64,000 nt of DNA from Pyrinomonadaceae bacterium (GTDB taxonomy: Bacteria; Acidobacteriota; Blastocatellia; Pyrinomonadales; Pyrinomonadaceae): positions 3,266 through 67,265 of the forward strand of contig DATENS010000253.1 of the NCBI GenBank assembly GCA_035274925.1, in the 5' to 3' direction. Shown in pieces: positions 25,707-50,815 of this stretch; within the stretch, counting starts at the first letter, position 1, and every line of letters starts with the position of its first letter. Below the pieces are notes generated by a model. That model did not search any database, was not told the DNA's origin, and saw only the letters and a list, made by a program, of their open reading frames with translations. Both the position numbers and the translations under genes were made by a program.

Positions 25707-26618
25707 TCATCTTCCCAGCCGCGACGCGATCACCTTTGCCGCGGTCGCGCCCGCGCCTACTGCGGCGGCAATGGTCGGCGCCAGCGGATTGGCCACGTCG
25801 CCGATAGCAAAAACATTGCTGACGCTTGTTTCCTGTTGGGAATCAACAGCTAAGTAACCCCGTTCGTCCTGCTTCAATTGACCGCTCAGGAAGTCCGTAT
25901 TGGGCTCGAATCCAATTCGGATCACCACACCCTGCACGGCCATTTGGAAAGGCTTGAGCGCTTGCGCGCGTTCGATTTCGACAGCCTCGACGCGATCGTT
26001 TCCCAGAATCCGCAGCACGCGGGACTCCGGAAAGACGGTCACGCAGTGATGTGTGTGCAACTGCTCAGCGAATTCCCGGCGCGCGCTGAGCTTCTTGCCG
26101 CGATGCACCAGGGTCACGGTGGGACAAACTTCACCTAACAGCAGCGCGTTCTCAGCGGCCGCATCGCCGCCTCCGATGACGCATACATCTTTTCCGGCAA
26201 AGGCTTCACGGTCTTTTGAGGCAGATTCAATAATTCCACGACCGGCAAATTCAGTTTCTCCGGGAATGCCCAGTTGGCGGCGGCGTAACCCGGTGGCGAG
26301 GATGAGCGCGATTGATTGCAACTGTTCGCCGCTCTTTAACGTGACGCGCTTTGCTTTCAAATCCACGGTTTCGATCTGAACGTTGGTCCAGAGATCGAAA
26401 TCACAGTCTTTGGTTTGTTCGGTGAATCGATCCCGCAGCTCGCGGCCGTTCGCCGCATGGGCGCCGAGGTAATCCTCGATGGGGTTGTAAGTGATGAGGA
26501 GTTGGCCGCCCACTTCTTCGCCTTGTTCAAGAACGAGAATGTCCAGTCCGAGCCGATCGCACCACATGGCTGCGCTCAAGCCCGCCGGACCAGCGCCGAT
26601 GATTACGACGTCATGCAT
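25707..26618 (-). CDS. thioredoxin-reductase-like FAD/NAD(P) flavoprotein lacking the CxxC redox centre
   Basis: MHDVVIIGAGPAGLSAA, VCVIGGGDAAAENA and FAIGDV motifs. At the TrxB CATC position the sequence is GRGIIESASKD. Confidence 0.75.
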   Translation of the reverse strand: MHDVVIIGAGPAGLSAAMWCDRLGLDILVLEQGEEVGGQLLITYNPIEDYLGAHAANGRELRDRFTEQTKDCDFDLWTNVQIETVDLKAKRVTLKSGEQLQSIALILATGLRRRQLGIPGETEFAGRGIIESASKDREAFAGKDVCVIGGGDAAAENALLLGEVCPTVTLVHRGKKLSARREFAEQLHTHHCVTVFPESRVLRILGNDRVEAVEIERAQALKPFQMAVQGVVIRIGFEPNTDFLSGQLKQDERGYLAVDSQQETSVSNVFAIGDVANPLAPTIAAAVGAGATAAKVIASRLGR

Positions 26619-26938: not shown

Positions 26939-27970
26939 ATGCGTCTGACTGAGATGGTTTCGTGCTCTGGTTGAGCGGCGAAGCTGGCGCCTGCCGTCCT
27001 CGCTCAGGTGTTGAGCGGGCTTGAGAAACAACCCAACGATCCAAATCTGCTGGTCGGTTTCGACAAAGCGGACGACGCCGGAGTGTATCGTCTGCGCGAC
27101 GATTTGGCGCTGGTGCAGACACTCGATTTCTTCACGCCGATTGTCGACGATCCGTTCGACTACGGCCGCATCGCTGCGCTCAACTCGATCAACGACGTGT
27201 GGGCCATGGGCGGGACGCCGGTGACCGCGATGGCCATCACCTGCTTTCCCAAGAAAGGTGTGGACTTCTCGATCCTTCAGGAGATCATGCGTGGGGGTCT
27301 GTCCGTTCTGACTGAAAACAAAGTGGCACTCGTCGGTGGCCATAGTGTCGATAACGAGCAGATCATGTTTGGGTATTCAGTCACCGGTGTGATCGATCCA
27401 AATCACGTGGCGACGAATGCAGGCGCGCGACCCGGAGATGTAATCATCCTGACGAAGCCGATCGGCACCGGCGTGATTTCGACGGGAATCAAGAAAGCAA
27501 AGGCGCCGCCCGCGCTCGTGGCCGAATCAGTTGCCACGATGATGACGCCGGGCAAATACGCCGCCGAAGCGATCATGAAATTTGATGTGAAAGCCGCAAC
27601 GGATGTCACCGGTTTTGCTTTGCTGGGTCACGCCTGGGAAATGGCTTGCGCCAGCAACGTCACTATTGAGATAGATTCGGCTAGCGTGCCTTTGATTAAC
27701 GGCGCGTGGGACTTAGCGGCGGCAGGAATGCTCACCGGCGCGGACAAGACCAATCGCGACTACGTAGGCCAGGATATCGAAATCGCTTCAAGCGTCGATC
27801 CGAATTTGCTGCGACTTTTTTACGATCCGCAGACGGCGGGCGGGCTGTTGTTGGCGATTGAGGAATCCAAGGCCCACGAGTTGTTGACGGAATTACGCCG
27901 CAATTACCCTCGCGCGGAAATCATCGGCCAGGTCCGAGGCCGCGGCCCCCACGCAATCCTCTTAAAATAG
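26939..27970 (+). CDS. selD: selenide, water dikinase (selenophosphate synthetase), Sec-containing form; UGA at 26972-26974
   Basis: AAAGGAGG RBS, then ATG 26939. [50 protein letters not shown]...[30 protein letters not shown]. Collinear with E. coli SelD, with TGA at the Cys17 position. Confidence 0.8.
26999..27019 (+). promoter_or_regulatory. SECIS-like hairpin downstream of selD UGA
   Basis: CUCGCUCA-GGUGU-UGAGCGGG: 8 bp including one G-U, with an apical loop containing GGU. First loop G lies 35 nt from the U of UGA. Confidence 0.45.
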
Positions 27971-28032: not shown

Positions 28033-29457
28033 ATGGCTTCGCCGATTTCGCAAACTGCTAAGTCCGGACCGCGCTCAATCGCCGAACTCTACCAATCCGT
28101 GCGCGCGCGCACGCTGGAGATCGTCGCGCCGCTCGAGATTGAAGACTATGTCATCCAAACCGCCGAGTTCATGAGTCCGCCGCGCTGGCACATTGGCCAC
28201 ACGTCCTGGTTTTTTGAGACGGTGCTGCGAAAATATCAGCCGGGCTACAAAGTCTTTTCAGACGACTTTCTCTTTTACTTCAATTCTTACTACGAAGGAT
28301 TTGGCGAGCGGATAGAACGTCAAAAGCGCGGCACGCGTTCCCGTCCGACGGTTGCTGAAACCAGAAAGTATCGCGCGCATATCGATGAGCAGATGTCGCG
28401 ATTCATCGAGAAGCTTTCGGCGCGCGATGATGCCGCGGAAATTCAGTCGATCATTCGGCTCGGACTCGAGCACGAGATGCAGCACCAGGAGTTACTGGTC
28501 TACGACATCAAACACCTTCTCTGCGATCAGTTTGATGCGCCCATGAAACCTGCGCCGCCCTCGCTGGAAACTGTCAGCGGCATGGCGGAGGTTGAAGGTG
28601 GGTTGTTTGAGCTGGGATACGCTATCTCCCTCCCCACAAGTGGGGAGGGCCGGGGTGGGGTAGCCACGGGCCAACCTCTCCCCCAACCCCTCTCCGAAGG
28701 CGGAGAGGGGAGTCAGAGAAACTCAAAAGACTTCGCCTGGGACAACGAAAAGCCCGCGCACAAAGTATTCCTCGAAGACTTTCAAATCGATCGCGCGCCG
28801 GTGAGCAATGGCGAGTATCTCGAATTCATTAACGCCGGCGGCTACACAGATTTTCGCTGGTGGCTATCGTCAGGTTGGGAGAAGGTGACGACGGAACAGT
28901 GGCAAGCGCCGCTTTACTGGGAACAACTCGAGGGCGAATGGATGATTCGGGACTTCGGCGGATTACATCGCGTCGCGGATAAATCAAACGAACCGGTTTC
29001 GCACGTAAGTTTTCTCGAAGCGTCAGCCTATGCCAAGTGGGCCGGCAAGCGCCTGCCAACTGAAGCCGAATGGGAAAAAACGGCTACGCTCGATTCCACG
29101 CAGCCATTTCCGTGGGGCAACCAGCCGTCTGACGAGAGTCGTGGAAATCTTTTCGAGAATGGTTTGTGGAGCGTCGCGCCCATCGGAGCTTTTCCAAACG
29201 GTAAAACTTCCCAAGGCATTCATCAGATGATTGGTGACGTCTGGGAATGGACCACTTCGGACTACACCCCTTACCCGGGCTTCAAATCCGAGTTTGACGA
29301 GTATAACGACAAATGGTTTGTCGGCCAGAAAGTTCTGCGCGGCGGTTCCTTTGCCACGCCGCAAATTCACATTCGCTCGACCTACCGAAACTTCTTCTAC
29401 CCGCACGAGCGTTGGATGATTGCCGGGTTCCGCTGTGCGAAAGACCCGGGCAAATAG
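28033..29457 (+). CDS. EgtB/SenA-like sulfoxide (or selenoxide) synthase: DinB_2 + FGE-sulfatase domains
   Basis: 474 aa. [74 protein letters not shown]. Confidence 0.8.
28624..28722 (+). repeat. in-frame hairpin-repeat insertion inside the EgtB/SenA-like CDS
   Basis: CCCTCCCCA-caag-TGGGGAGGG (28628-28649), then CCGGGGTGGGG, then CCCCTCTCCG-aagg-CGGAGAGGGG (28687-28710). Same family as 16618.. and 19334... Encodes [35 protein letters not shown]. Confidence 0.7.
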
Positions 29458-29504: not shown

Positions 29505-30635
29505 GTGGATCGAATACAATCTCCCGCGCGGCAGCTTCATGCGCCGCTCCGGCTCGTGAAAATCGAACTTCTCGTTGATTTCAAAGAATTCTGGGCACGG
29601 TTGAGCGAGGACATTCACTCCGCTCAGGGCTCGGTTTACGTCCAGACATTCGCGCTCGAAGGCGACGCTACGGGGCGACAACTTGGAGCCGCTTTGCTTG
29701 CCTCGCCGGCGCCGGATCGCCGCATTCTCGCCGACTCGTTCACGCGCGTCATGCTCAGCGATCGATTCAAGTATTCGCCGTCAGCCCTGCTTGATCGCGA
29801 GTTACGAGACGAAGCGCGGCAGACAACTGCCATGCAAAACGAGCTGGCCGCCGCCGGCGTCGAGATTCGATTTACCAACGCCTACGGACCAACGCCGCGC
29901 CGCATGCTCAGTCATAATCACAAGAAGCTCATCGTGGTCGACGAGAGCACTGCATACATCGGCGGTGTTAACTTCAGCGATCATAACGGCGCCTGGCACG
30001 ACATGATGTTTCGGATCGAAGATGAGAATTCGATCCGGTTCCTGCGCGAAGATTTTCTGACTACCTGGAAAGGCCAGGATCGCGTCGCCCGGCAAGCGGG
30101 GGACAGCATGGAACTCCTGACCACCGACGGCCGAAAGAACCGCCTCGTCTTTCAACGGGTGTTTGATTTGGTGGACGCCGCGCGCCAGACGATTTTTGTC
30201 GAGAGTCCCTACGTCACTTTTCCGTTTTATGAACGATTGCGCGAAGCCACGCGCCGCGGTGTGCGCGTGACTGTGATTACCCCCGAAGAGAATAATTGGC
30301 GCTTCTTCAGAAACTATGCGCGGCTGGAATCAGCGAGGTCGGGCATCGACTTGCGGTTTTTCCAGGGACGCATGAGTCATTTGAAGGCAATGCTGATCGA
30401 CGACGAGTATCTGATCGCGGGCTCGACCAACTTTGATTACCTCAGTTACCGGGTCCATCAGGAGCTGATCGCGGTGATCACATCGCCTTCGGTCATCGTC
30501 GATTTTCGCGAGCGCGTCGTTCTTCCTGATCTGGCGAATTCACGCGTCGTGGAATGCCACGCGAGCACGGCCGGCAAACAATGGCTGGGCTTGCAGACAA
30601 GACTGCTGGACGCAGCCATGACGATTCTTACTTAA
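29505..30635 (+). CDS. phospholipase D / cardiolipin-synthase-like protein (two HKD motifs)
   Basis: HNHKKLIVVDESTAYIGGVNFSDHN and SHLKAMLIDDEYLIAGSTNFD. Start is uncertain (GTG 29505 or GTG 29556). Confidence 0.75.
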   Translation: MDRIQSPARQLHAPLRLVKIELLVDFKEFWARLSEDIHSAQGSVYVQTFALEGDATGRQLGAALLASPAPDRRILADSFTRVMLSDRFKYSPSALLDRELRDEARQTTAMQNELAAAGVEIRFTNAYGPTPRRMLSHNHKKLIVVDESTAYIGGVNFSDHNGAWHDMMFRIEDENSIRFLREDFLTTWKGQDRVARQAGDSMELLTTDGRKNRLVFQRVFDLVDAARQTIFVESPYVTFPFYERLREATRRGVRVTVITPEENNWRFFRNYARLESARSGIDLRFFQGRMSHLKAMLIDDEYLIAGSTNFDYLSYRVHQELIAVITSPSVIVDFRERVVLPDLANSRVVECHASTAGKQWLGLQTRLLDAAMTILT

Positions 30636-31242
30636 GCCCGATTTCCTTCCGCTCGTAATTCCCGTAGACAAAATCCTGCTGCGACTGGTGACATGCGAAG
30701 CAGGCGCCTTTCTTTTGCCGCTTCTGAATCCTGGACGCTGTTCCATTCACAATCAGAAATTCCCAGTCATTCGCGGCCGGATTGAATCCTTTCGCTCTTT
30801 TGATCATCACGGCCAGCAGGTCGGGTGTTTCGCTTTCCGGATGGGAAAGTTTTGCGCGCACGATCATCGAGCCGGGTCTGAAGCTCGAACGGGGCGTGGC
30901 GTTCATGGCTTCGAGCGCGATGTCGTTTGCATAAACGACGCCGAAGGTGTGTTGTTTGCGAACGGGCTCGGGATTACTCCACTCGCCGGGTCGCGGAAAG
31001 ATGAATCGGGTTGTGCCGCCACCTCCAATGATTCGTGGCCCGTCAACTACGGGCCCTATAGGTCTAACGCTTCAACCGGCGACCGACGCGTAGTCCAGCG
31101 CAATCACTTTCTGAGTAACTCGCGACCACTGGCGATATTTGGAGATCTCCTGCAGCGTATCGTCGTCTGTGATGTTGCCGGCGATTACCGCGGTAGTGAT
31201 GCTTAAAACAAGAGCGATGAGTTTGAGCGAACGTCCGGACAT
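30628..31242 (-). CDS. cytochrome P460-family haem protein with one in-frame UGA (31074-31072): candidate selenoprotein, or a nonsense pseudogene
   Basis: GGAGG 7 nt before ATG 31242. Signal peptide MSGRSLKLIALVLSITTAVIAG. ORF-track pieces 31072..31305 and 30628..30906 share one frame, with no other stop between them. C-terminal ..VMIKRAKGFNPAANDWEF....CFACH....DFVYGNY. Confidence 0.55.
31037..31055 (-). promoter_or_regulatory. SECIS-like hairpin downstream of UGA 31074-31072
   Basis: Minus strand: GGCCCG-UAGUUGA-CGGGCC. Perfect 6-bp GC-rich stem. The stem starts 19 nt after the U of UGA. Loop contains GU. Confidence 0.45.
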
Positions 31243-31332
31243 TGGGCGCCTCCAGCTTTTCGCATTGGTTTGTCCGGGGTAGTAACGCTCGGATGCCGCG
31301 CACACTTCACGGGATGCTTTTCCAGCCGGGCA

Positions 31333-34068
31333 TTATTGAGTGTCCGACTGCAGTTTGGCGGTCCAGGGGCTGCGCGGATAGTTCTGACGCAGAAGTTTGA
31401 CGACCTGCTCGAGCGTCTCCTTATCGTTGTCCCAGCCATTGCAGCCGTACTTGTAACTTCGGTTGGCCTCAGCCGCAATGTAGAGCGCTTCGGGGATGCG
31501 CGGGTCGTTGGGAGATTGTTTGGCCCATGCAAGCACGCGTCTTCCCAGATAACTATGGGCGTCGCCAATGGCGATTAGCGCGGCCCGTTCGCGGCGCGCC
31601 TTTTCCAATTCAACTGGAGTTAGAAATTGCGGTTTGGGAACAGACTTCGCGGCTTCCCGGCTCAACTGGACGTCGTATTCGGTATTTACAGGCTTACACC
31701 ACCATGAAGTTTCAAAGTCATAGGAGGACTGTTCGGCAGTCATGAAGTCCGGAATGCCTCCGACCACCAGCGGAGTGAGAGCCGGAAACTTAAGCAGGAC
31801 AAAAAGTGCGGCATGTTCCTTCTCGGCCCGGGTCTGGGCGTCCCGGTACGAGTCGAAGACCGGCTTCATTTCGGGCGCGAATTTCACTGCCTCAGGCGCT
31901 ATGCGTGAGGCGATCGCGTCGTTTTGCAGAACTATGGCCCGGGTCCAGACTGCCAGCACCAGCCGCCGCCGCAAGTAATCGGGAACTACCGGATTGCGCG
32001 CCGCCATCTCCAATCGTTCGAGTGGGAAATGCCAGTTGAGGATCTCAATCGCCTCGTCGTCAAGCTGAACTCGATCATCCCAGGGCAACAGATCTTCATA
32101 ACGCTCGTCAACACTCTTCTCGTATTCTTCCTTCGTCGGTTTATTTTCGAACCGGTCTGAAAAATACGAGTTGAATTCCCAGTCCGATTTCGCCTTTCCG
32201 ACAATGTCGCTAATGGATCCCATTCGGCCTGCTTCGTAATAAGCGGCCGCCTTCCGCGGGGCGAACTTGAGAAAGTCATTCACATTGTCTGCCAGCAACA
32301 TGCGCTGTTCGAGGAACTGATTCCGGGCGGAAACCGGCGGGCGTTCCAGGCCTGGTAAGACCGAATCGTCCAGTAACTTTCGCGCTTCAGCTTTTTTGCC
32401 GGACGCAATCTTCAATCGCACCAGGTTGTAAGCCGCGGTGGGATAAAGCGGCGACTCGGGTTGAATCTTTTCGGCAAAACTTGCCAGCCGGTCCACGCGA
32501 GGCGAGTTGAACTCGGCCCTGGAGATTGCCAACGCGAACCAGGCGGGCGATTCACTCTCGCGCCACTTGGCCATCGCCCGATCGTAAACACCGGGGTCTG
32601 ATGTTTGCGCGGCGAAAATCCACTCGCTGAGATCGTCGCCGCGAAGGAAAGGCGGAATCAAATCCAGGGTGAGACTATTGCAGTCGCTATAATCGTAATT
32701 GCATTGGCCACCTTCATGTTCAGTCAACCCGGAGCGGCTATACCGGCGGTTAGGACTGATGTGGTATTGACGCGACTTCAACGCCGAATCAATGTGCTCA
32801 TCCAGATTCTTGAGTTCGTCCGGTGTTAGCTGCCGGCCGAGCGCGCTCGCGAACGCCATGCGCACCTCGTCTCGGGTAACCGTGGATTTGAAATCAAGAT
32901 GAACGTACTGAGTGTGGTCAGGCTTTCCGTTCACCAGCGGACTCCAGCTGATGTCGATCAGTTCGCCTCGTTGAATAGCCTCAAATCTGGCCTTGAACTC
33001 GGGATTGGACCACGCGTCTTTTTCTTCCTCCTTTTCGCCGCGCGCGGCCCGCTTCCGTTTTTCCTCCTCCTCTACGATCCGATTTTCAATCTTGTCGAGC
33101 AGCCAAACGTAGTCGATCAAGTCCTGCTTGAGATTGGGATTGCCGCCCTGGTTCGCCAGAATGCTCGCCAACTCTCGGACTCTTTCGTGCGGATGCCAGC
33201 GAAATTGAACCAGAGCAAGCAACTTCTGGGCGCCGCCTGAAAACTGGCCGCGCCGGCTCGCGATCAGGCGCAGGTGGCGCTCGGCTTCCTCATACAATTC
33301 ACGTTGCTTGTTTTGATCCTGAGTCAGGCTGGCATGACGCACCAGGGTGCGGCCCACCAGATAGTCGGCGGTTTCGCGCCAGGGAGATTCCAGATCGGCG
33401 GCAATGCTGGCAAAGCGACTGCGCGCCCCGTCGAAGTTCAATGAGTAAAGAAGCGCGGCGCCGATTTGATAATCGCGATCCTTTCGCAACCAGGCGGGGC
33501 TTTCAGGACCGAGCTCAGCCGGAATGGCGGCGCCACCCTGGCAGTTTTGAAACACGAGATCCTGAGCGGCCAACCACGCGCGAACATTCTTGTCTTCTGT
33601 GCCGTAAGTCGCTGACCGTTCTTTCAGCGTCGTCGTCGCAACTTCAAAAGCATTCCGGGCACAGTTGGGAAAGAAATCGTAACCCTCGTGTTGCCTCTCC
33701 ACGTAAACTTCAGGCAAGGGCTCGTCTTTAAGGGCGACCTCTTTTCGCGCCAGCAGCCACGCCTTCATGGCGTCGTCGCCCTGATCTTCCGGCGCTTTGC
33801 CGCGCAGCGTCTCAACCAGTTGCTGTCGCTCGTCGTCCGAAAATGAGCCGCCGTTGAAATATCGATAAGTAACGAACAGCGTCTTGCGTCCGAGCGTCGG
33901 CCGCAGAATTCCAATCTTGCCTGCCACAAATTCGTCGAACGGCAGATCGGGCGAGTGGTTGAAGACGAAGATCGGCTGAATGAACTCAGGGCCGCAGGCC
34001 ATGGCGGCCATCGGCATCTGGAAGATCATCAGCAATCCCAAAAAGCAGACAACGAGCTTTTCCTTCAT
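31333..34068 (-). CDS. large (911 aa) secreted or lipid-anchored protein of unknown function
   Basis: ATG 34068 overlaps the upstream stop (ATGA). Signal peptide MKEKLVVCFLGLLMIFQMPMAAMAC. Helical-repeat-like composition. No motif recognised. Confidence 0.7.
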   Translation of the reverse strand: MKEKLVVCFLGLLMIFQMPMAAMACGPEFIQPIFVFNHSPDLPFDEFVAGKIGILRPTLGRKTLFVTYRYFNGGSFSDDERQQLVETLRGKAPEDQGDDAMKAWLLARKEVALKDEPLPEVYVERQHEGYDFFPNCARNAFEVATTTLKERSATYGTEDKNVRAWLAAQDLVFQNCQGGAAIPAELGPESPAWLRKDRDYQIGAALLYSLNFDGARSRFASIAADLESPWRETADYLVGRTLVRHASLTQDQNKQRELYEEAERHLRLIASRRGQFSGGAQKLLALVQFRWHPHERVRELASILANQGGNPNLKQDLIDYVWLLDKIENRIVEEEEKRKRAARGEKEEEKDAWSNPEFKARFEAIQRGELIDISWSPLVNGKPDHTQYVHLDFKSTVTRDEVRMAFASALGRQLTPDELKNLDEHIDSALKSRQYHISPNRRYSRSGLTEHEGGQCNYDYSDCNSLTLDLIPPFLRGDDLSEWIFAAQTSDPGVYDRAMAKWRESESPAWFALAISRAEFNSPRVDRLASFAEKIQPESPLYPTAAYNLVRLKIASGKKAEARKLLDDSVLPGLERPPVSARNQFLEQRMLLADNVNDFLKFAPRKAAAYYEAGRMGSISDIVGKAKSDWEFNSYFSDRFENKPTKEEYEKSVDERYEDLLPWDDRVQLDDEAIEILNWHFPLERLEMAARNPVVPDYLRRRLVLAVWTRAIVLQNDAIASRIAPEAVKFAPEMKPVFDSYRDAQTRAEKEHAALFVLLKFPALTPLVVGGIPDFMTAEQSSYDFETSWWCKPVNTEYDVQLSREAAKSVPKPQFLTPVELEKARRERAALIAIGDAHSYLGRRVLAWAKQSPNDPRIPEALYIAAEANRSYKYGCNGWDNDKETLEQVVKLLRQNYPRSPWTAKLQSDTQ

Positions 34069-34856
34069 GGCGAGATCCTTTGATTCAGTGCGGCGACGTC
34101 GTCTGCCTGCCATGCGCGATTGTTGAAAACATAGATGCGCCGCGAATGATCAAACTTCAAATCGAGTGGCTCGTCCAACGCGATGCCGTAGCTCTTGCGG
34201 CAAAGTGGCTCGCCAAAATCTTCTCCGGACGCCAGCCGGCTCTTGATCGCGCGATCATCGGCGCCCATGCGAAAAATCATGGGGACGGCTTCGTCGACGG
34301 GAAGATCGTGGAGCCAGCGATCTCCGACGCAGAAGGAAGCCAACGCCGTTATCGAGAGTGGGACATGGTCCGGAAGTTTTGCGCGCAGTTCCTGCAACAG
34401 CGCGCGATAAAACTCTCGTTCAGAGGATGCTGCGTCAAAATCAATCTGAATCGCGGTCACGCGATTCAGCTCGAGCGTCTTCAGGATCAGTCTTACCAGC
34501 CGCTCTCGTTGCGCAGCAGAGAGGGCGGCTCGCTGGCGCGTTGTCTTTTGCGATTCAATTCGCGTCACCGCCATCATCTTCGTGGTTGGGGAAACTCGGA
34601 GCGGTTGATGACGCGGACTGTAGCCGACGTCTTCGTCCTTTAACGTCAATGTCTGGGCCAGGAAAGCCACGGCAAATCTCTGCGAATCGAGAAACTCCAG
34701 GTCCTCAGGACGCTCCCACGCCCACAAGACCACGGGCGGGAATTGCGTTTCATTCAAACGGTTGCGAGCCGGCAGTTTTGATTTACAGCTCGCCAGAATC
34801 ATCAGTGACAGCGCCAACCAAATTCCGACGGAATTCCTTCTCAGCATCGGAGGCAT
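34065..34856 (-). CDS. putative lipoprotein (DUF3142-like, recalled from memory and unverified)
   Basis: Lipobox in SVGIWLALSLMILASC. 263 aa. Translationally coupled to the 911-aa gene. Confidence 0.55.
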   Translation of the reverse strand: MPPMLRRNSVGIWLALSLMILASCKSKLPARNRLNETQFPPVVLWAWERPEDLEFLDSQRFAVAFLAQTLTLKDEDVGYSPRHQPLRVSPTTKMMAVTRIESQKTTRQRAALSAAQRERLVRLILKTLELNRVTAIQIDFDAASSEREFYRALLQELRAKLPDHVPLSITALASFCVGDRWLHDLPVDEAVPMIFRMGADDRAIKSRLASGEDFGEPLCRKSYGIALDEPLDLKFDHSRRIYVFNNRAWQADDVAALNQRISP

Positions 34857-34944: not shown

Positions 34945-35847
34945 TTAGTTGGCCGGTGCGGCTTGTTCGCGTGCGTGGTAAGACGAGCGGGTGAGGGGAC
35001 TGGACTGGACGTGCTGGAATCCCATGGTCATGCCGATATCTCGCCAGCGATCGAACTCTGCGGGCGTGACATAGCGCTCGACCGGCAGGCGCCGCGCGTG
35101 TGGCTGCAGGTACTGGCCGATGGTCATGATGTCGCAGGAAGAGGCGCGCAGATCTTTCATCAACTCGACCACTTCATCGAATGTTTCACCCAGGCCTACC
35201 ATGATGCCGCTCTTGGTCAGCATGCCGCGCCGCTCACGATCGCGACGCTCTGCCGCGCGTTTCAGTAATGTCAGCGACTGCTGGTAATCAGCATCGGGCC
35301 GGACCCGTCGATACAATCGTGCGATGGTTTCGGTGTTGTGATTAAGCACGTCCGGTGCGGCATCGAGCACGGTCTGCAAAGCCGCTTCGTCGCCATTGAA
35401 GTCGGGAATCAACACTTCAACTTTACAATCCGGGTTGAGGGCGCGCACCTGGCGAATAGTCTCAGCCCAATGCGCGGCGCCGCCGTCAGGCAGGTCGTCG
35501 CGATTGACTGACGTAATTACCGCGTGCGCCAAATTCAGATGACGCACCGCCTCGCCCACATGACGCGGCTCATCCGCATCGAGCGAGCCGGGAGCGCCTT
35601 TGCCCACGGCACAGAACCCGCAGTGGCGCGTGCAGATGTCTCCGCCGAGCATGAACGTCGCGGTGCGATCTGACCAGCATTCGAAAATGTTTGGACACCG
35701 CGCTTCCTGGCAAACCGTGTGCAGATTCAAACCCTGAATCAGCTTCAACAGATGGTTCTGATTGGTCGGATCGCCGAGACGGATCCGCAGCCAGTCAGGC
35801 TTGGGCTGGCGGGGTTTGGTATTAAGGACTCGAAGCTCGCGGGCCAA
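34945..35847 (-). CDS. lipA: lipoyl synthase
   Basis: CQEARCPN..EC and CTR.C.FC radical-SAM and auxiliary cluster motifs. 300 aa. Confidence 0.9.
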   Translation of the reverse strand: MARELRVLNTKPRQPKPDWLRIRLGDPTNQNHLLKLIQGLNLHTVCQEARCPNIFECWSDRTATFMLGGDICTRHCGFCAVGKGAPGSLDADEPRHVGEAVRHLNLAHAVITSVNRDDLPDGGAAHWAETIRQVRALNPDCKVEVLIPDFNGDEAALQTVLDAAPDVLNHNTETIARLYRRVRPDADYQQSLTLLKRAAERRDRERRGMLTKSGIMVGLGETFDEVVELMKDLRASSCDIMTIGQYLQPHARRLPVERYVTPAEFDRWRDIGMTMGFQHVQSSPLTRSSYHAREQAAPAN

Positions 35848-47562: not shown

Positions 47563-48849
47563 ATGCTCGACCTAAATTACGTTCGCGAAAATATCGATGC
47601 CGTGCGTGCGGCTCTGGAGAAACGAGGCGCGCCCGCGACAGCGCTCGACGACTTTGCACAGGCTGACGCCGAGCGCCGGCGAGTAATTGCCGAGTCCGAT
47701 CAACTGAACGCGAAAAGGAATACGGCCAGTCGCGAAATCGGCGCCTTGATGAAAGACGGTAAGCGTGAGGAAGCCGACGCCCAACGCAAATCAGTGGGCG
47801 AGATGAAAGAGCGCATCGCCGAGTTGGATCGGCAGCGCGACGACGCCGACACGCGCATGCGCGATCTGCTCTCAACCCTGCCCAACATTCCTCACGACAG
47901 TGTGCCGGTTGGTAAAGACGAATCGGCCAACCGGTTCGAAAGAGTTTGGGGTGAAAAGCCTGAGTTTGAGTTTGAACCAAAAGATCACGTGGATCTGGGA
48001 ACAGCCCTCGGCATTCTCGATCTGGAGCGGGCAACGAAGATCGCCGGGGCGCGTTTCGCGATCCTGCTGGGCGCAGGGGCACGACTCGAGCGCGCCTTGA
48101 TTGACTTCATGCTGGATGTGCACACGCGTGAGCACGGTTACCTCGAGACCCTGCCGCCGTTCATAGTCAATCGCGATGCGCTATTTGGCACTGCTCAACT
48201 GCCAAAATTCGAAGAAGATCTTTTCAGGCTCGATGACGAACGCGGGTTCTACCTGCTTCCCACGGCTGAAGTTCCCGTCACCAACTATCATCGCGAGGAA
48301 ATTCTCGAGGCGTCACAGTTGCCGAAGAAATGGGTGGCCTACACGCCGTGTTTTAGATCTGAGGCGGGCAGTTATGGAAAGGACACGCGCGGAGTGATTC
48401 GCCAGCACCAGTTTGAAAAGGTCGAGCTGGTGAAGTATTCGTTGCCGGAAAATTCCTATGATGAACTCGAAGCGCTGACCCGCGACGCGGAAACGATCCT
48501 GCAGAAACTGGGGATTCATTATCGAGTGGTTTCGCTCTCGACCGGTGACCTGGGCTTTGCCAGCGCGAAGACTTATGACATCGAGGTGTGGCTGCCGTCG
48601 CAGAATGCGTTTCGCGAGATCTCGTCATGTTCAAACTGCGAAAGTTTTCAGGCGCGACGGGCGAACATTCGCTTTCGCCGGGCGGGCGGCGCCAAACCTG
48701 AGTTTGTGCACACGCTAAATGGATCAGGGCTGGCTGTCGGCCGCACCTGGCTCGCGATTTTGGAGAACTTTCAGCAGGCGGACGGATCAGTCGTGGTGCC
48801 GGAAGCGCTGCGGCCGTACATGGGCGGAGTTGAGCTCATTAGGGCTTAG
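47563..48849 (+). CDS. serS: serine--tRNA ligase
   Basis: [10 protein letters not shown]... coiled-coil arm. Class II motifs ..FRSEAGS.G.DTRG..R.HQF.KVE.. and GSGLAVGRT. Confidence 0.95.
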
Positions 48850-48873: not shown

Positions 48874-48979
48874 GCCCCGTCGGGGCTTCAATTTTGTTTG
48901 GTCTCGGGACTTGGGGTGGCGCGCTTCGCGCTTACCCCAGGCTATTTTATTTTCACGCCTTCGGCGTGAAGACCTTCAC
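48874..48979. repeat. cluster of tetraloop-type hairpins between convergent genes
   Basis: GCCCC-gtc-GGGGC, GGGGTGGCGCG-cttcg-CGCTTACCCC (imperfect), CACGCC-ttcg-GGCGTG, GTGAAG-ac-CTTCAC. Confidence 0.7.
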
Positions 48980-49009: not shown

Positions 49010-50815
49010 CTATCTAATCCGCAAACTAAACGGCAGCAGATAAACTGCCTCGCCCCGCTTGACCCGATCCATGATTTGCAAATAGCGAAAAGCGTGACGC
49101 ACATCTTCGGGCATGGCCGCGAGCATGGCCTGTTGCTGCTTTAGCGTCGCGTTGGCACTGGCGTCGACGCTGTCTTCGCCTGAGTCGCTGAACAACTCTT
49201 CCCAGAAGCTGGGTGGCTGCGGGCGAATGATGCGCTGCACGCCCTTGTCGGCAGGTATCTTCGCCAGTTGCTTGGCGATTTCGATCGCCTTGTCGAGCCC
49301 GCCGTATTCATCAACCAGCCCGTTGTCTTTCCCCTGTTTTCCGGTCCAGACACGGCCCTGACCGATCGAGTCGATGTAAGCCGCATCTTTCCCGCGGCCT
49401 TTTCCGACTTTCGAAATAAAATCCTGATAAGTCGTATTCAGGAACTCTTCGAACTTCTTTCTTTCGCTGTCACTGAATTTTTCGGATTCGCGAAACATGC
49501 CCGCGTTCGTGCCGCGCAGCACGTATTCATTCGTAACCCCAATCCAGTCATAGAAACCCTTGACCACCGGCTTGCCGCCAACGACGCCGATCGATCCGGT
49601 AATCGTCGAAGGCTCGGCGACGATCTTGTGCGCGCCGGCGGCAATGTAATAACCGCCTGACGCGGCCACGTCGCTCATCGAAACCACCACCGGCTTCTTT
49701 TCTTTCAGCGATTCAACGGCGCGCCAAATAATGTCTGAGGCCAGCCCGGATCCGCCCGGACTGTCGATGCGAAAGACGACGGCCTTGATCGAATTATCGT
49801 CGCGCACTTCTTTCAGGACTTTGACCAGAGAGTCTGATCCAATCGTTTCCTGCCCCGAAGATCCGAACTGCGAGCTGCCAGAGACAATGTCGCCAGAGGC
49901 GTACACCACCGCAATTTTTTCACCGCGGTTCAGGCCCAGCGACTCCTGCGTAATCTTGCGATAATCCCCGGCGCTGGTGACGCGCAATTCATCGCCCTCT
50001 TTATAACCAAGGCGTTTCTTCATCTCCTTGTCTACTTCGTCGCGGTAAAGAGCGCCGTCGATCAGGCCCGCATCCTTTGCCTGAGCCGCGTTGTAAGGCG
50101 CGTTGTCGATTATCTTCTTCACGTCGTCAGCCGATTTCGATCGCCCTTTCGCAATTCCTTCGACATACCGGCCGTACAAATCATCCAGCAGCGAATTGAT
50201 GTACTCGCGATGGGCATCCGTCATCTCCTTTTGCGTGAACATGTCGCCAGCGCTTTTGTACTTTCCAATCTGGTACATGTCGGGATAGATGCCGAGTTTG
50301 TCGAGCGAGCCGCGGAAGAACATCACGTCGGCTGCGAGACCTGTGACGAAGAGCTCTCCTGAAGGCGGCACGTAGATCTTGTCGCAAGCCGCGGCGATGT
50401 AATAGTCCTTGTTGAATCCGGTTTCGATGAATGCGTAGACAGGTTTGCCCGACGAACGAAAATCTTCAATCGCGCCGCGAATTTCTTCTGCCTTGGCCCA
50501 ACCCGTGTCCGACGCATCGATGTCGAGAATAATGGCGCTGATGCGCTTGTCGGCTTTTGCTTTGCGAAACTGGGCCAACAGGCTGCCGAGCGATTGCGGC
50601 GGATTGCTAAAGAGACGATTGAAGGCGTTATCGGGAACGTAGTCAGGCAGCGGGCCTGAGACGCGCAGCGCCAGAACGCTGTTGTCGCGAATCGATGGGC
50701 GGCCGCCTCTGAGCGAGGAAACCAAAATCGCCATTCCTACAAAGAAGAACAGCACCACGCCCAGAACGATTCCGGAAATGATAAGTACGGTTTTACGGGT
50801 TGATGACATTGCCAT
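49010..50815 (-). CDS. sppA: signal peptide peptidase SppA, 67K type
   Basis: 601 aa. N-terminal TM helix. Two tandem S49 domains (..AASGGYYIA..). Confidence 0.8.
   Translation of the reverse strand: MAMSSTRKTVLIISGIVLGVVLFFFVGMAILVSSLRGGRPSIRDNSVLALRVSGPLPDYVPDNAFNRLFSNPPQSLGSLLAQFRKAKADKRISAIILDIDASDTGWAKAEEIRGAIEDFRSSGKPVYAFIETGFNKDYYIAAACDKIYVPPSGELFVTGLAADVMFFRGSLDKLGIYPDMYQIGKYKSAGDMFTQKEMTDAHREYINSLLDDLYGRYVEGIAKGRSKSADDVKKIIDNAPYNAAQAKDAGLIDGALYRDEVDKEMKKRLGYKEGDELRVTSAGDYRKITQESLGLNRGEKIAVVYASGDIVSGSSQFGSSGQETIGSDSLVKVLKEVRDDNSIKAVVFRIDSPGGSGLASDIIWRAVESLKEKKPVVVSMSDVAASGGYYIAAGAHKIVAEPSTITGSIGVVGGKPVVKGFYDWIGVTNEYVLRGTNAGMFRESEKFSDSERKKFEEFLNTTYQDFISKVGKGRGKDAAYIDSIGQGRVWTGKQGKDNGLVDEYGGLDKAIEIAKQLAKIPADKGVQRIIRPQPPSFWEELFSDSGEDSVDASANATLKQQQAMLAAMPEDVRHAFRYLQIMDRVKRGEAVYLLPFSLRIR

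Follow-up and report, generated by a model that had tools for sequence, protein, structure and literature searches.

A haem c gene of a Pyrinomonadaceae bacterium with an in-frame UGA: a predicted selenoprotein of the cytochrome P460/c'-beta fold

On the minus strand of a metagenomic contig from a Pyrinomonadaceae bacterium, a gene for an exported haem c protein is crossed by a single in-frame UGA. The question raised by this locus is whether the codon ends translation, as public annotation has it, or is read as selenocysteine (Sec). The stretch analysed, called the window here, comprises 64,000 nucleotides (nt) (assembly GCA_035274925.1, contig DATENS010000253.1, positions 3,266-67,265 of the forward strand), and all positions given are those of the window. 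An original prediction, made from the sequence by itself, had proposed a new selenoprotein at this place. At a probability of about 0.88, we regard 31242..30628(-) as a single intact gene, the product of which is a periplasmic mono-haem c protein with the P460/c'-beta fold and the UGA codon 57 of which is predicted to be recoded to Sec by the standard bacterial route. In the proposed mechanism, a selenocysteine insertion sequence (SECIS) inside the coding sequence, at 31055-31037, would recruit SelB with Sec-tRNA(Sec), and the ribosome would place Sec at the UGA instead of terminating. The selenophosphate would be supplied by SelD, encoded 4 kb away and itself a Sec enzyme.

The reading frame and its homologues

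From ATG 31242 to TAA 30630-30628 the frame extends over 615 nt of the minus strand and has 204 sense codons; its sole in-frame stop is the TGA at 31074-31072, codon 57 (Table 1). When the frame was read again, the open reading frame (ORF) pieces at 31072..31305(-) and 30628..30906(-) proved to be in phase with no stop between them, the TGA proved to be the only interruption, and every coordinate of the gene and its elements given in the original prediction was correct. A ribosome-binding site, GGAGG, was present at 31253-31249 as had been noted, with a spacer of 6 nt and not 7. The N-terminus, MSGRSLKLIALVLSITTAVIAG, is signal-peptide-like when read from the translation, which agrees with the earlier assignment, and the window gene and its three close metagenomic relatives (L081-L083) all begin with MSG[RS]S[LF][KR]L. 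Periplasmic attachment of haem c requires export. The first conserved motif of the P460 domain, Y[RK]xW, is present in all Sec and Cys forms and lies in the window gene upstream of the UGA, so the P460 domain is split by the stop codon. The C..CH motif near the other end is invariant across all homologues. The Pfam model PF16694 (Cytochrome_P460) matched residues 96-193 of the window protein with 43.3 bits against a cut-off of 27, while the NCBIfam scan of this protein returned no matching model. Besides the residue at codon 57, the translation contains no free Cys within the monomer that would be available for pairing.

The scan of GTDB species representatives, with TGA translated as U, gave 80 loci, mostly from Pyrinomonadaceae and other Blastocatellia, with some from other Acidobacteriota and a few from Abditibacteriota and from metagenome-assembled genomes (MAGs) that are probably mis-binned. 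Sec forms also occur on complete Pyrinomonadaceae chromosomes, OY969701.1 and OY970389.1 among them. TGA was found in 41 homologues, a number that includes the window gene and L081-L083. They are mostly Blastocatellia MAGs, at identities from 83% down to about 30%. The TGA lies 20-38 residues past the Tyr of Y[RK]xW, usually 21-24, and at +21 in the window. In 43 further relatives the residue is Cys, placed exactly at +21 from the YxxW Tyr in the context ..A[LM]CAxPT.. in all 33 that were first scored; the '..aLC..P' context given in the original prediction matches this. Neither Trp nor Arg nor a variable residue occupied the UGA position in any of the 41 TGA and 43 Cys sequences, and Cys was invariant in the 33 first-scored forms. 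When the TGA was entered as a neutral X in a MAFFT alignment, the X fell in or beside the Cys column. Relatives did not carry scattered stops, as a decaying gene might; the TGA was kept over the whole range of identity. In the window, TGA is otherwise an ordinary stop that ends 16 of the 48 long ORFs, and a reassigned genetic code was rejected for this reason.

The TGA and Cys forms differ at a second position. In the family profile alignment the strand ..GSVIV-K-EKL falls on GTVIVKEL, the segment with the haem-cross-linking Lys in Nitrosomonas P460 (6AMG, 2JE2), and in the column of this Lys Arg was found in 35/35 Sec forms and Lys in 33/33 Cys forms (counts after correction by eye of four regex mis-hits). 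In the representative library of 1.84 billion proteins a few Sec-type fragments have Ser or Leu there. The sequences thus fall into a Cys/Lys and a Sec/Arg clade, which are paralogous and often share a genome. The Cys/Sec pair that had been proposed is borne out in this form, although it holds between coexisting paralogous clades and not between orthologues. Copies also occur side by side: L020, L041 and L064 each have a pair of Sec-form genes, and L036 has a pair of Cys-form genes. At least five MAGs contain both forms, on separate contigs.

The nearest relatives whose DNA was read, L081, L082 and L083, are 83, 67 and 63% identical to the window protein. All begin MSGRS.. and have the TGA at codon 57 or 58. 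Compared with L081 and L082, the ratio of nonsynonymous to synonymous change (dN/dS) was 0.18-0.24 over codons 1-56 and 0.13-0.15 over the C-terminal domain, at strongly diverged synonymous sites (proportion of synonymous differences, pS, 0.45-0.63). Both halves of the gene, before and after the stop, are under purifying selection.

Public protein sets contain this gene in pieces. Among 5.8 billion proteins searched, 27 homologues were found. Each has 116-160 residues and covers the post-UGA part only, and none has a signal peptide. The best match (P0001, 99% identity) is the NCBI 'cytochrome P460 family protein [Pyrinomonadaceae bacterium]' of 143 residues. It begins MGPVVDG, and the genome codon there (31055-31060), shortly past the UGA, is ATA (Ile); the start looks like one forced by homology and illustrates the mis-annotation. 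The gene calls of L081-L083 consist of an ORF of 56-57 residues that ends in the TGA and a separate P460 fragment, and the same split, known from the gene table only, was seen for P0004. Among the best 150 matches in the representative library, no full-length protein was found in the 54 Arg-type clusters, as against 57 Lys-type clusters that are full length with the loop Cys. The N-terminal motif was lacking in 53 of the 54, and the remaining one, P0217, was rejected as a false match of the motif test. The five longest Arg-type clusters, when read, were fragments without a signal peptide. This points to a systematic annotation error, in which the Sec-clade members in the searched public protein sets are all signal-less C-terminal fragments.

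The hairpin downstream of the UGA

The hairpin at 31055-31037 had been described as a perfect GC-rich stem beginning 19 nt after the UGA. Its position and composition were correct, and its length is 7 bp rather than 6 through an extra U-A pair. Counted from the U of the UGA, the hairpin starts at 19 nt, and 23 nt lie between the UGA and the loop. Bacterial SECIS (bSECIS) elements have been defined by a stem of 4-16 bp, a loop of 3-9 nt with G in its leading two positions, a distance of 16-37 nt from the UGA and a minimum free energy of -7.5 kcal/mol or lower (PMC13188914). These constraints were applied here to uninterrupted (no-bulge) stems only. The window element lies within all four, with 7 bp, the loop AGUUG, 23 nt and -12.7 kcal/mol, and its uninterrupted stem ranks at the 99th percentile of shuffles.

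The same constraints were satisfied by 27/41 Sec forms, by 3/43 Cys forms and by 5% of shuffles (Fisher p = 8e-9). Hairpins above the 95th percentile of shuffles were found in 24/35 Sec forms and, at the equivalent place, in 2/33 Cys forms, and the median energy of the best hairpin was -12.2 kcal/mol for Sec against -7.2 kcal/mol for Cys forms (p = 5e-5). Nearly all TGA forms have a G+C-rich hairpin of 6-8 bp with a loop of 3-5 nt of the type xG[G/U]xx (GGC, GGU, CGUGA, AGUUG, GGUC). In the 21 aligned sequences the centre of the hairpin lies 22-37 nt past the U of the UGA and always falls on the middle base of a codon. In the loop-anchored alignment of these 21 hairpins 94.6% of the cells were paired and 7 of 8 pairs had two-sided changes (36 cells); 0/500 shuffles reached the observed values, and controls slid along the sequence gave at most 55% paired. 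The bacterial SECIS that the original prediction had asked for is therefore found within the published ranges and is conserved, with compensatory changes, in the Sec forms and absent from the Cys forms.

The peptide encoded by the stem shifts with the RNA, being R-V-G-D-V-P, I-G-D-G-P or P-A-G-G-G in relatives and G-P-V-V-D-G-P in the window, and some of the amino-acid changes are compensatory at the RNA level, for instance R-V-G-D-V-P versus G-P-V-V-D-G-P. Since the peptide changes in step with the RNA, the RNA and not the peptide is the selected object. A SECIS in a coding region, the pairing of which constrains several residues after the Sec, would be an example of RNA shaping a protein sequence.

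A covariance model (R1) built from the hairpin alignment recovered its own training hairpin within the window (26 bits). It did not recover the SECIS of selD in the scan of the window, its sequence specificity being too high for the detection of SECIS elements in general, and the Rfam scan of the window gave no matches. The only other R1 match with E < 0.1, at 48948-48974, is a palindromic hairpin, UUCACGCC-GAA-GGCGUGAA, between the convergent genes 47563..48849(+) and 49010..50815(-), and is probably a bidirectional terminator.

Decoding of the UGA and the gene neighbourhood

The presence in the window of a SelD that itself needs UGA decoding had been put forward in support of Sec insertion, and this was upheld: TIGR00476 scored 368 bits, and the gene has an in-frame TGA of its own. 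A hairpin of 8 bp with the loop GGUGU is found at 26999-27019, the loop being separated from the UGA by 32 nt; as a single sequence its fold was not significant (z = +0.2). An organism with a Sec-dependent SelD has to decode UGA as Sec, and the gene supports the view that this one does so.

Several results count against Sec decoding of the haem protein gene. A tRNA scan gave no match at all in the window and no tRNA-Sec in 34 Sec-form loci, and neither selA nor selB was seen in the ORF map of the window, where eight ORFs were family-scanned, or in the fetched loci. The strict no-bulge test was failed by 14/41 Sec forms. Because the hairpins detected in the individual sequences served as anchors of the covariation alignment, its percentage paired is partly so by construction; the contrast with the Cys forms and the constant codon phase are independent of this anchoring. 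For the 60 nt that follow the UGA of the window gene, the fold is no better than in dinucleotide shuffles (z = -0.9), and because this fold is not significant by itself the case rests on the comparison with the 40 other homologues. One Sec form in an MFD MAG (L019:4001-4570) has the TGA in place and a further in-frame stop that is not TGA (..VREKLA*AENTAPQ..). In another MFD MAG the N-terminus of a Cys form (L046) is out of frame. The defects in L019 and L046 are either local pseudogenes or assembly errors.

The lack of significance of the single-sequence fold, the second stop in L019 and the truncated 143-residue protein at the locus in public annotation are also what one would expect of a pseudogene, that is, a P460-family gene killed by a nonsense mutation with a fortuitous hairpin behind it. 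A dead gene would not be expected to keep its TGA in one position across 41 homologues with identities as low as about 30%, nor to evolve upstream of the stop at a dN/dS of 0.18-0.24, and the hairpin covaries; decay is left with next to no probability. Gene callers and NCBI treat the locus as two products, a 56-residue exported peptide that ends at the UGA and a separately initiated haem domain of 143-147 residues. The downstream piece would have neither the signal peptide, and hence no route to periplasmic haem c maturation, nor the YxxW motif of the P460 domain. No conserved start codon follows the UGA, the fragment starts vary and that of P0001 falls on the ATA, and the Cys forms are single proteins of 195-210 residues. 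Such a division is highly improbable. The signal peptide and the YxxW motif upstream of the stop, taken with the conservation and the dN/dS values, therefore exclude for practical purposes both the pseudogene and the split into two genes. There is a small chance that the UGA is read through as a residue other than Sec, either as near-cognate Trp or Cys or as Cys carried on tRNA-Sec under selenium scarcity, given that the identity of Sec and the presence of selA, selB and selC are predicted. Against this stand the conserved SECIS-type hairpin with its canonical G[G/U] loop at the canonical distance, the Cys of the sister clade, which is a hallmark of Sec sites, and the requirement of the same organism's selD for Sec decoding. 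Sec insertion at codon 57 of one intact gene is the reading we retain.

Table 1. Features of the predicted selenoprotein gene and of selD in the window
Feature	Position	Strand	Remarks
Predicted selenoprotein gene	30628..31242	-	204 codons + TAA; putative exported mono-haem c protein, P460/c'-beta fold, predicted Sec at codon 57
Shine-Dalgarno GGAGG	31249..31253	-	6-nt spacer to ATG 31242-31240
Signal peptide, about 23 codons, MSGRSLKLIALVLSITTAVIAGN	31174..31242	-	from the translation; borne by the pre-UGA piece only
Y36-R-Q-W39, first conserved P460-domain motif	31126..31137	-	upstream of the UGA; matches YREW/YRFW in the alignment with solved P460 and c'-beta chains
UGA codon 57, read as Sec (predicted)	31072..31074	-	context ..ASVAG-U-SVRP.., onward ..ASVAG-U-SVRPIGPVVDGPR..; TGA in 41 homologues, Cys in 43
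bSECIS hairpin GGCCCGU-AGUUG-ACGGGCC	31037..31055	-	7 bp, 5-nt loop whose second base is G, -12.7 kcal/mol
Sec-clade-specific insertion, about 36 codons, SVRPIGPVVDGPRIIGGGGTTRFIFPRPGEWSNPEP	30964..31071, end approximate	-	houses the SECIS and the ..G.TTRI.. motif; absent in Cys forms
Arg129 (MIV-R-AKL) at the haem-cross-link Lys column of true P460s	30856..30858	-	from profile alignment
CFACH haem c attachment motif	30688..30702	-	residues 181-185; Cys181, Cys184, His185 = proximal ligand
selD (selenophosphate synthetase)	26939..27970	+	in-frame TGA 26972-26974; TIGR00476 368 bits against a cut-off of 125

The closeness of the haem protein gene to selD and egtB is peculiar to this window. In the Sec-form loci lipA was found upstream in 21/32 and a Zn-dehydrogenase-like gene downstream in 18, and no conserved neighbour was found at the Cys-form loci. 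In the window, two proteins of 926 and 263 residues without a credible NCBIfam match are encoded at 31333-34856(-) and separate lipA (34945..35847-) from the Sec gene. Most relatives have lipA immediately ahead of the Sec gene, and the 926-residue protein recurs in only 4 loci, elsewhere placed. Directly after selD follows a gene for an EgtB (28033..29457; TIGR03440 467 bits, above the cut-off), for which the SenA model gave 353 bits, below its cut-off of 420. Upstream of selD lies a divergent thioredoxin-reductase-like flavoprotein gene, 25707..26618(-). The adjacency of selD and egtB recalls the selenoneine (sen) cluster, and no SenB-like glycosyltransferase is adjacent.

Fold, relation to known haem proteins and the proposed role of Sec57

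The original prediction had called the protein a cytochrome P460. The family was right and the fold probably so; the name in its strict sense was not, for Arg129 occupies the column of the cross-linking Lys. Since all scored Sec forms have Arg in this column, the window protein is expected to have the P460 fold without the defining residue of cytochrome P460 proper, and so not to be a true P460. Lys131 lies two residues beyond Arg129. An AlphaFold2 (AF2) model of the Cys form P0099 had a predicted local distance difference test score (pLDDT) of 80.6. Its 21 best Foldseek matches in the PDB were all P460 or cytochrome c'-beta, and there were no other structures among its significant PDB neighbours. 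The AF2 model of the post-UGA piece of the window protein has a P460-like strand order at a mean pLDDT of 66. In both clades the loop that joins the YxxW and ..VYxN strands is larger than in the solved structures and contains Cys or Sec and a conserved His; in the window protein this loop, with Sec57, would lie between the YRQW and FGVVYAN strands. After the Sec, the Sec clade adds a further 30-45 residues that contain the SECIS and the ..G.TTRI.. motif. The corresponding loop of Nitrosomonas europaea P460 is flexible and carries the capping Phe41 over the distal haem face (PMC10411619). A 392-residue protein of the representative library, P0148, is a fusion of two P460-like domains, the first with the loop Cys and Lys, and the second without the loop Cys and with Cys at the cross-link column (GSVIV-C-EEY).

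With the cytochromes P460 of N. europaea (2JE2/2JE3), Nitrosomonas sp. AL212 (6AMG) and Methylococcus capsulatus (6HIU) the window protein shares PF16694, the YxxW motif, a C-terminal CXXCH, a signal peptide and, by prediction, the beta-sheet fold, and these structures are the best PDB matches of the modelled Cys-form paralogue. It departs from them in Arg129, so that the P460 chromophore would not be made in the known way, and in the Sec and the insertion of 30-45 residues in the capping loop, where the known P460s have neither Cys nor Sec. Cytochromes c'-beta (Thermus thermophilus 7EAD, M. capsulatus 6HIH, N. europaea 7S5O) have the fold predicted for the window protein and likewise no Lys cross-link, and among PDB sequences the family profile matches 7EAD best (1.3e-10). 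The distal pocket of c'-beta is hydrophobic. A hydrophobic residue, Phe in 7EAD, stands at the cross-link column of c'-beta, in contrast to the Arg and the conserved loop His and Sec found here. In this respect the window protein does not resemble a classical c'-beta. The Cys/Lys sister clade (Acidobacteriota, Abditibacteriota; about 200 residues; 'cytochrome P460 family protein', more than 2,000 database proteins at E <= 1e-10) shows 30-35% identity and an equal architecture, in which the loop His and CXXCH are conserved. Unlike the Sec clade it keeps the Lys and is without insertion, TGA or hairpin.

Sec has been predicted in other c-type cytochromes, namely ExtKL (NF040886), the GSU2204 family (NF041027) and the octahaem tetrathionate reductase family TIGR04315 (Table 1 of PMC13188914). 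These too are haem c proteins with Sec from the bacterial machinery, but of unrelated multihaem folds. In native cytochrome P450 subfamily M, reported in 2024, a UGA-encoded Sec replaces the conserved Cys and is demonstrably the proximal axial ligand of a b-type haem, and the proteins appear truncated in databases (bioRxiv 10.1101/2024.12.22.630014). In the window protein, unlike the Sec-ligated P450, the proximal ligand is the His of CXXCH and a contact between Sec and iron is hypothetical. A natural haem-selenolate is thus not unprecedented, yet it would be new for haem c and for the P460 fold. Neither P460 nor PF16694 appears among the 119 prokaryotic selenoprotein families inventoried in 2026 (PMC13188914), and a full-text literature search for P460 with selenocysteine or selenoprotein found nothing relevant. 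As far as sequence comparison can tell, the Sec/Arg clade is a genuine selenoprotein family, not listed before, in which recoding follows the canonical bacterial mechanism.

For the role of the residue we propose, tentatively and at a little less than even odds, that Sec57 is a redox or ligand residue close to the haem that acts with the conserved loop His and Arg129. This is inferred from the position on the distal capping loop, the co-conserved loop His and the switch of the residue in step with the cross-link column. One form that such a role might take, by way of a guess, is that of a nucleophile in the distal pocket, with a small N-, S- or Se-oxyanion or a molecule of the NO type as substrate. 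Another, unlikely on present grounds, would make Sec57 the sixth axial ligand of a His/Sec-ligated haem c, by analogy with His/Cys-ligated c-type cytochromes of the TsdA and SoxAX type, in which Cys is the sixth ligand.

P460 and c'-beta proteins are homodimers. This fits a different arrangement, in which the Sec is accepted but lies off the haem, as part of a selenylsulfide between subunits or within the molecule, or as a redox or metal-binding site at the surface, and the haem is plain and five-coordinate as in c'-beta. An inter-subunit link would agree with the want of another free Cys in the monomer, and the Cys loop that places the residue is modelled in P0099 at moderate confidence only (pLDDT 66-76). 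The haem-proximal role is weakened further by the pLDDT of 36-47 for the post-Sec insertion in the AF2 model, by the outcome that no functional partner was found in the 32 Sec-form neighbourhoods, and by the consideration that the correlation of Sec/Arg versus Cys/Lys may merely reflect the two clades. Against a site off the haem are the place of the residue on what in N. europaea P460 is the capping loop of the distal haem face, its co-occurrence with the conserved loop His, and the switch of its identity together with the cross-link column. We consider the off-haem arrangement possible but doubtful.

A combined proposal was also formed for the haem-proximal role, in which Sec57 would be the sixth haem c ligand or a substrate binder over the iron, the Lys cross-link would have been swapped for Arg, and the SECIS would be housed in a clade-specific insertion whose peptide (R-V-G-D-x-P) is set by RNA pairing. 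Taken as a whole it is improbable; if true, this would be the first natural selenolate-coordinated c-type haem.

Interest in the P460 fold has come from the chemistry of hydroxylamine and NO in nitrifiers and methanotrophs. The family predicted here would be an addition to the prokaryotic selenoproteome, and would represent a large clade of soil Acidobacteriota in which Arg replaces the Lys cross-link and Sec is carried on the haem-capping loop, with a sister clade that has Cys and Lys. The two would form a natural pair, Cys/Lys versus Sec/Arg, and with it an experiment on the outer-sphere tuning of a c-type haem. The finding hints at a selenium-dependent periplasmic redox activity, hitherto unrecognised, in abundant soil bacteria.

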